Source: Escherichia coli
GTDB lineage: Bacteria; Pseudomonadota; Gammaproteobacteria; Enterobacterales; Enterobacteriaceae
Assembly (NCBI RefSeq): GCF_050920415.1
Contig: NZ_CP169309.1
Length of the DNA: 64,000 bases
Reading direction: 5' to 3' (one strand)
How positions within the stretch are numbered: position 1 is the stretch's first letter; every line of letters starts with the position of its first letter. Position numbers and translations under genes: made by a program. Below the pieces are notes generated by a model. The model did not search any database and was not told where the DNA came from. It saw only the letters and a program-made list of their open reading frames with translations. Shown here piece by piece: positions 1,346 through 1,528 of this stretch.

Positions 1346-1528
1346 TCATGGCAGATGTTTATTCCCATCTAAAATGGCATCAACGGGAAAGTAAGTAATG
1401 TGTTTATTGTTATTCTTCTCATTTATTTTATCGCCATGGTTATTTTTTAAATCAACCGGGGCTTCCTCATGATATTTCCTGATTAACTCTTCAGGCGTAA
1501 AAGAAGAGTTTTTTCCGTTTATGTTCAT
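1346..1528 (-). CDS. Hypothetical small Lys/Asn-rich protein (60 aa) between chaperone and translocator genes
   Basis: Track ORF MNINGKNSSFTPEELIRKYHEEAPVDLKNNHGDKINEKNNNKHITYFPVDAILDGNKHLP. ATG is 10 nt after the chaperone stop; weak RBS; no recognisable domain. May be spurious. Confidence 0.25.
   Translation of the reverse strand: MNINGKNSSFTPEELIRKYHEEAPVDLKNNHGDKINEKNNNKHITYFPVDAILDGNKHLP

Follow-up and report, generated by a model that had tools for sequence, protein, structure and literature searches.

The gene order of the Escherichia coli eip island, in which a chaperone gene precedes the genes for SipB/IpaB- and SipC/IpaC-type translocators and a SipD/IpaD tip protein, is shared by the translocator operons of Salmonella SPI-1 (sicA-sipBCDA) and Shigella (ipgC-ipaBCDA), and a HilA-type regulator lies nearby in all three. 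The chaperone and first translocator genes of the two classical systems are nearly contiguous, the gap being 2 nt in sicA-sipB and 5 nt in ipgC-ipaB. In Providencia, sicA and sctE are likewise 2 nt apart, and in a plasmid-borne T3SS of E. coli the chaperone and translocator genes overlap by 8 nt. Translocator operons of the SPI-1/Mxi-Spa type are characterized as possessing a class II chaperone together with SipB/IpaB (SctE), SipC-like and SipD/IpaD-like genes; abutting chaperone and translocator genes are typical of them but not defining.

The eip island of EAEC 042 comprises eicA, eipB, eipC, eipD, eilA and air/eaeX (Sheikh et al. 2006, as cited in PMC7058095, PMC11068852 and PMC4210603). 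The three papers that cite this work name six genes (eicA, eipB, eipC/eipX, eipD, eilA and eaeX/air), and none of them names a gene between eicA and eipB. Control of eipB, eipC, eipD and eicA has been attributed to the regulator EilA (PMC4210603, PMC11068852). The island is therefore a published, selC-adjacent locus of E. coli, and the small open reading frame (ORF) with which we are concerned here is already present in RefSeq, where PGAP annotates it as a CDS for a "hypothetical protein" or, in many strains, as a pseudogene.

The eicA-eipB junction

The window is a stretch of 64,000 nucleotides of E. coli DNA (NZ_CP169309.1), the first 2.3 kb of which, read on the minus strand, represent the proximal end of the eip island (Table 1). 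The locus is situated between yicS/nlpA and nepI, near selC. The eip island of EAEC 042 is this locus, situated at the same point of the chromosome and 96-98% identical in nucleotide sequence. Of 5,426 complete E. coli genomes, 741 contain the approximately 1 kb around the gap between eicA and eipB, with identities of 96-99%.

Table 1. Features at the proximal end of the eip island (positions are those of the window)
Feature	Position	Strand	Description and basis
eipB, first 430 codons	1-1291	-	SipB/IpaB/SctE-type translocator; continues past the window start; stop-free translation
eipB start codon ATG	1289-1291	-	Translation
eipB Shine-Dalgarno sequence GGAGGTG	1296-1302	-	4 nt from the ATG; same in all alleles aligned
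More conserved 3' part of gap	1292-1429	-	ORF codons 34-60 and 54-nt spacer; ~138 nt
Fast-evolving 5' part of gap	1430-1537	-	9-nt junction and ORF codons 1-33; 108 nt
60-codon ORF, ATG start	1346-1528	-	MNINGKNSSF...GNKHLP; RefSeq "hypothetical protein" or "frameshifted" pseudogene
A6 homopolymer within the 60-codon ORF	1443-1448	-	T6 on the plus strand; polymorphic; alignments, translations
eicA	1538-2035	-	165-aa class II (SycD/LcrH/SicA-type) TPR chaperone; ORF list, profiles, RefSeq orthologues
yicS	2337-2630	-	Backbone flank of the eip island

EicA is a member of the SycD/LcrH/SicA family and not a SicA equivalog: in profile searches it scored 113.2 bits against TIGR02552 (cut-off 104.8) and matched PF07720 with E = 2.3e-17, and its score of 149.8 against the SicA equivalog model lies below the cut-off of 184. 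Its identity to the SPI-1 and Shigella chaperones is only 42-52%. The part of EipB encoded in the window, 430 codons only, gives a weak match to NF011901; the orthologues annotated by RefSeq in full-length loci are 593 aa in length and are assigned there to the SctE/YopB/SseC family, and the genes that follow them are those for a hypothetical protein and an IpaD/SipD tip protein. The locus possesses the class II chaperone and the SipB/IpaB (SctE), SipC-like and SipD/IpaD-like genes of an SPI-1/Mxi-Spa-type translocator operon, but its chaperone and translocator genes do not abut.

The gap between them (1292-1537) is exactly 246 nt in length: 9 nt separate the eicA stop codon from the 183-nt ORF, and 54 nt of spacer follow it. 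Its GC content is 33%, and the sense strand contains 103 A and 38 C. The product of the ORF (MNINGKNSSFTPEELIRKYHEEAPVDLKNNHGDKINEKNNNKHITYFPVDAILDGNKHLP) includes 10 Asn and 7 Lys among its 60 residues (28%). Scans of Pfam and NCBIfam revealed no family match, the sole entry, HAD-IA, being noise at E = 0.13. The predicted duplex between the region upstream of the ORF and the 3' end of 16S rRNA has an energy of -4.8 kcal/mol, as against -8.7 for eicA and -12.9 for eipB, whose GGAGGTG is near-perfect; about 20% of random positions in the region score -4.0 kcal/mol or better. The original prediction had described a gap of this size holding a Lys/Asn-rich ORF of 60 codons with no recognizable domain and a weak ribosome-binding site, and had contrasted it with near-contiguity in the classical pairs; in all of these particulars it was correct.

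The ORF is longer than its composition would lead one to expect (P = 0.011, 5000 dinucleotide-preserving shuffles), and its ATG is located 9 nt past the eicA stop codon. An AlphaFold model of the product (mean pLDDT 59, pTM 0.21) is mostly coil with one short helix. A word-indexed search of 5.8 billion proteins yielded no homologues outside E. coli, only E. coli variants of 78-96% identity, several of them truncated. No credible homologue outside E. coli was found by an exhaustive HMMER search of 1.84 billion representatives either; its one non-self match (P0036, 577 aa, E = 1e-8) carries eight repeat copies with PLELSNNHGQIVN, and we discarded it as a short-motif match, resembling residues 24-36, that is inflated by repetition. 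Neither a known domain nor a recognizable homologue in related taxa, as would be expected of a conserved small gene, was thus seen in these searches.

Chaperone-translocator gaps in related loci

The eip-like island of E. albertii occupies the same chromosomal site, has the flanks (yicL, yicS) and the gene order of the window, and its chaperone is 71% identical to EicA. Here the gap is 263 nt and contains a 70-codon ORF, annotated in one of three assemblies, which starts at the chaperone stop codon (GTGA overlap), ends 54 nt before the translocator ATG and is also longer than chance (P = 0.0046, dinucleotide-preserving shuffles). The DNA of the two gaps is essentially unalignable, and BLASTP detected no similarity between the E. 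albertii ORF and the E. coli ORF product. The N-termini of the two do exhibit a weak similarity (MN-IN..SS..P..R; z = 2.9, P = 0.0075). In one E. albertii assembly (L013, LXLZ01000014.1, 5786-7560) the translocator, which is 591 aa in the two others, is split into ORFs of 501 and 83 aa and is probably a frameshift pseudogene.

A third, divergent Escherichia eip-like island (L023; GCA_009799345.1, WTUQ01000002.1), with a chaperone 55% identical to EicA, has a gap of 255 nt. In this genome, which is labelled E. coli, the segment 1-7480 encodes a translocator of 582 aa, a large invasin/intimin-like gene adjoins, and the gap is very AT-rich and without a long ORF. In other loci whose chaperones are closer to EicA than those of the classical systems, the gap measures 282 nt in a full T3SS locus of metagenomic origin (L025), 171 nt in L014, an atypical locus from Logan contigs with a chaperone that is named Salmonella enterica by NCBI, and 121 nt in a Yersinia enterocolitica assembly (L016); in two further relatives it is 34 and 46 nt. 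L014, L016, L023 and L025 belong to the Ysa-type and other SPI-1-family loci; no sense ORF of more than 36 codons is present in their gaps, which share only the Shine-Dalgarno sequence with the gap of the window. When a motif common to the long gaps of six lineages was sought, the Shine-Dalgarno sequence was again all that emerged.

The long spacer is a recurrent trait of the EicA sub-branch and not an anomaly of the window. Within the SPI-1 family, then, tight juxtaposition of chaperone and translocator genes is not universal. The description of the gap as unexpected holds against the classical systems, with their 2-5 nt, but was overstated with respect to the related loci, where 121-282 nt is found.

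Frame and substitution pattern of the ORF

The A-run within the ORF, which is A6 in the window, is A5 in EC6868, EAEC 042 and UPEC69 and A7 in WB61 and DSM 101139. The A5 allele encodes a product of 34 aa and the A7 allele one of 29 aa. RefSeq flags the ORF as "frameshifted" in each of these strains, all of which have intact eicA, eipB and eipC genes. EAEC 042 differs from the window not only in the A-run but also by an additional G in the spacer. Among 59 full-length loci, evenly spaced and taken from complete genomes, we found frameshift alleles in 19 (~32%; 12 A5 and 7 A7), each with intact eicA and eipB, so that the frame is not preserved wherever the operon is. The original prediction had held that frameshifted copies in otherwise identical loci of related strains would speak against the ORF; such copies exist, and one of them belongs to EAEC 042, the very strain it had put forward for comparison. 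Because it is lost in that strain and in about a third of strains overall, the ORF is dispensable.

The A-run length classes are homogeneous in identity (97.4% and 95.9%) and have flanking protein accessions in common within each class, which identifies A5 and A7 as inherited haplotypes rather than sequencing errors. The breaks seen are A-run indels only, and nonsense substitutions are absent. We rejected the notion of a phase-variable contingency locus, since the run comprises just 5-7 A, where 8 or more are typical, and each length is tied to one distinct haplotype. Programmed -1 frameshifting at U UUA AAA in the A5 allele would restore the frame on paper; it was also set aside, as omega is approximately 1, no stimulatory structure was found, and A7 would need the opposite shift. 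On one metagenome scaffold from ENA (L031, 1175-1351) an 042-like A5 allele carries, in addition, a 5-nt deletion that restores the frame and yields a 58-aa product. We do not regard this second indel (P0004) as evidence of selection, for it occurs on a single metagenome contig and amounts to slippage in a 5-nt tandem repeat (ATAAA x2 to x1).

The substitution pattern points in the same direction as the frameshifts. Across 11 loci, the ORF has a pairwise pN/pS (Nei-Gojobori) of 0.98, compared to 0.06 in eicA and 0.24 in eipB, and the variable sites of the ORF are distributed 13/7/6 over codon positions 1, 2 and 3, that is, without a third-position excess. Site-wise omega over 16 distinct alleles is 0.68 (12 synonymous and 35 non-synonymous changes), the synonymous excess not being significant (p = 0.16). 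Purifying selection on the amino acids of the ORF as a whole was thus not detected. The C-terminal 15 residues are unchanged in all full-length protein variants, and the last 15 codons exhibit three synonymous and two non-synonymous changes (omega 0.19, p = 0.076), which is a weak hint of constraint on the C-terminal YFPVDAILDGNKHLP.

Two rate regimes can be distinguished within the gap. The 5' part accumulates 0.343 changes per site and so evolves as fast as synonymous sites do (0.347 at eipB third positions, with 0.181 at eicA third positions), and several of its codons are multi-allelic; in terms of variable sites, the faster part of the gap has 25 of 137 and eicA third positions 28 of 166. 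The 3' part has 0.116 changes per site, three times fewer than the 5' part (p = 0.0006). This lower density is the same on both sides of the ORF stop codon (0.119 in the 3' half of the ORF and 0.111 in the non-coding spacer). Since the constraint ignores the boundary of the ORF, its cause is to be sought at the level of DNA or RNA upstream of eipB rather than at that of protein. It is a moderate constraint, because the difference from eicA third positions is not significant (p = 0.19). The proportion of variable sites is 6/111 in the 3' block and 20/301 in the region upstream of eicA.

A search for known signals did not add to this picture. No terminator-like or sigma-70-like site was found on the minus strand of the gap at the threshold of the promoter/terminator scan, overall counts being at the level of shuffled sequence. 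The folding energy of the gap RNA does not differ significantly from that of shuffled sequences (z = -1.48), and Rfam at permissive thresholds gave chance-level matches only (best E at least 0.8, far below gathering thresholds). No MxiE-box-like motif occurs near the locus. With neither a terminator, a significant fold nor an Rfam match, a leader-peptide attenuator or a known cis-regulatory RNA is not indicated.

Interpretation of the spacer

From these data we surmise that the 246-nt stretch is probably a lineage-specific intercistronic spacer of the eicA-eipBCD translocator operon, and that its 60-codon ORF, which evolves like non-coding DNA, is not maintained by selection as a protein-coding gene. 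According to this scheme eicA and eipBCD would constitute one operon under EilA control, the regulation being that reported in the papers cited above, and the tight chaperone-translocator junction would have been replaced in the eip lineage by AT-rich sequence. The ORF would drift neutrally and lose its frame through single-base changes in the A-run, leaving the neighboring genes unaffected. Ribosomes that terminate on eicA might re-initiate at the nearby ATG and produce some of a small, unstructured and dispensable peptide in A6 strains. The eipB gene has its own very strong Shine-Dalgarno sequence, from which it would be translated independently, and because of this it would not depend on translational coupling; the eip lineage appears to rely on this independent site. 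The 3' ~138 nt probably serve as the upstream or translation-initiation region of eipB and would be constrained as such at the DNA or RNA level, a role suggested by the distribution of changes along the sequence, and they are a reasonable place in which to seek eipB-specific control. To that extent the leader or regulatory region, which the original prediction had envisaged alongside a lineage-specific small protein and sequence decay, is plausible, though short of demonstrated, as regards the conserved 3' block. Of the small protein that it offered as another possibility, the lineage specificity stood, homologues being confined to E. coli; a functional protein is unsupported, with about a third of the loci frameshifted.

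The consequences are modest and hardly extend beyond annotation hygiene, and the eicA-eipB spacer presents nothing of a new kind. A useful negative result is that the eip island should not be credited with a seventh gene on account of this ORF, and in surveys of the "intactness" of ETT2 or eip loci its frameshift should not be scored as an inactivating lesion.

The 3' block (~1292-1429) might also contain an internal, activator-dependent promoter or operator for eipBCD, in which case the translocators would be transcribed apart from the chaperone and the ORF would be incidental. We think this unlikely; it is compatible with the spacer interpretation and does not exclude it. The reduced variability of the block relative to the 5' part, which resembles that of the eicA upstream region, is what such an element would predict, the gap is as AT-rich as the eicA promoter region is, and the reported targets of EilA include eipB, eipC and eipD as well as eicA. 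However, a sigma-70-like site was absent from the minus strand of the gap at the threshold of the scan, no MxiE-box-like motif was seen, the long gaps of other lineages have no motif in common with it besides the Shine-Dalgarno sequence, and the block is not significantly more conserved than eicA third positions.

It is in our judgment quite unlikely that the ORF encodes a genuine accessory protein, small and fast-evolving, such as a T3SS-associated factor or a secreted substrate, which A6 lineages would produce and which would be switched off in lineages with A5 or A7. Such a protein would account for ORFs longer than chance in both E. coli and E. albertii that share their start position, end 54 nt from the translocator and have weakly similar N-termini, and also for the invariant C-terminus; the position of the ATG just past the eicA stop favors re-initiation, and PGAP does annotate the ORF as a CDS. 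Against this, pN/pS is near 1 overall with no excess of third-position changes, ~32% of genomes have a broken frame, among them EAEC 042, the strain used for functional study of the eip locus, and the Shine-Dalgarno sequence is weak. Moreover, the E. albertii ORF shows no resemblance by BLASTP, there are no homologues and no domain, the fold is of low confidence, and the conservation of the C-terminal codons runs unchanged into the non-coding spacer. The points in favor of the ORF, namely its length, the E. albertii counterpart and the C-terminus, are outweighed by the frequency of frameshifts and the neutral substitution pattern. These points could be accommodated by an ancestral small gene on which selection is now relaxed, or by selection that acts on translation of the spacer and not on the peptide itself.

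There is a small chance that the ORF is positionally conserved in the two Escherichia species, either because its translation is selected or because it encodes a fast-evolving T3SS-associated peptide with a conserved C-terminal YFPVDAILDGNKHLP; if this were true, the A-run would be a lineage-level on/off switch tuning eipB expression. That translation itself is kept, so as to shield the intercistronic RNA against nucleases or against Rho or to control how readily the eipB start is reached while the sequence drifts, would reconcile omega near 1 with longer-than-chance ORFs that end 54 nt before the translocator ATG in both species, but this is very improbable: the A5 and A7 alleles end translation after 34 and 29 codons and leave ~150-165 nt untranslated while the downstream genes are still maintained, the gap has no terminator-like site, significant fold or Rfam family, its A-rich, C-poor sense strand is a poor Rho-loading site, and relatives with gaps of 255 and 282 nt have no such ORF.

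Several minor observations on the surroundings and distribution of the locus may be recorded. The tRNA-Sec gene (selC) is located at 6518-6612 on the minus strand, ~4.2 kb from the eip island. No ORF of 250 or more codons lies between selC and setC in the window strain, which thus has no large selC-A phage-like insertion, unlike EAEC 042, where one is present (L027, 1864-12257). Among E. coli loci, nucleotide diversity (pi) in the distal part of eipB (window 1-400, codons ~300-430) is 0.10-0.18 compared to 0.02-0.05 in eicA and proximal eipB, which suggests allelic replacement, recombination or diversifying selection in the C-terminal half. The sole "plasmid" match to the eip locus, a PLSDB record of 4,938,057 bp (H31, NZ_CP141089.1), is evidently a chromosome, and a contig labelled "MAG: Collinsella sp." (L018, JAIJJM010000039.1, 941-1435), whose EicA is 98% identical to that of E. 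coli, almost certainly derives from E. coli and was mis-binned. Lastly, in E. coli MFDS1022581 (L034, NZ_CP169399.1, 901-2734), which has a gap allele identical to that of the window, eicA is split by an IS2 insertion, an example of attrition of the eip island that is still ongoing.
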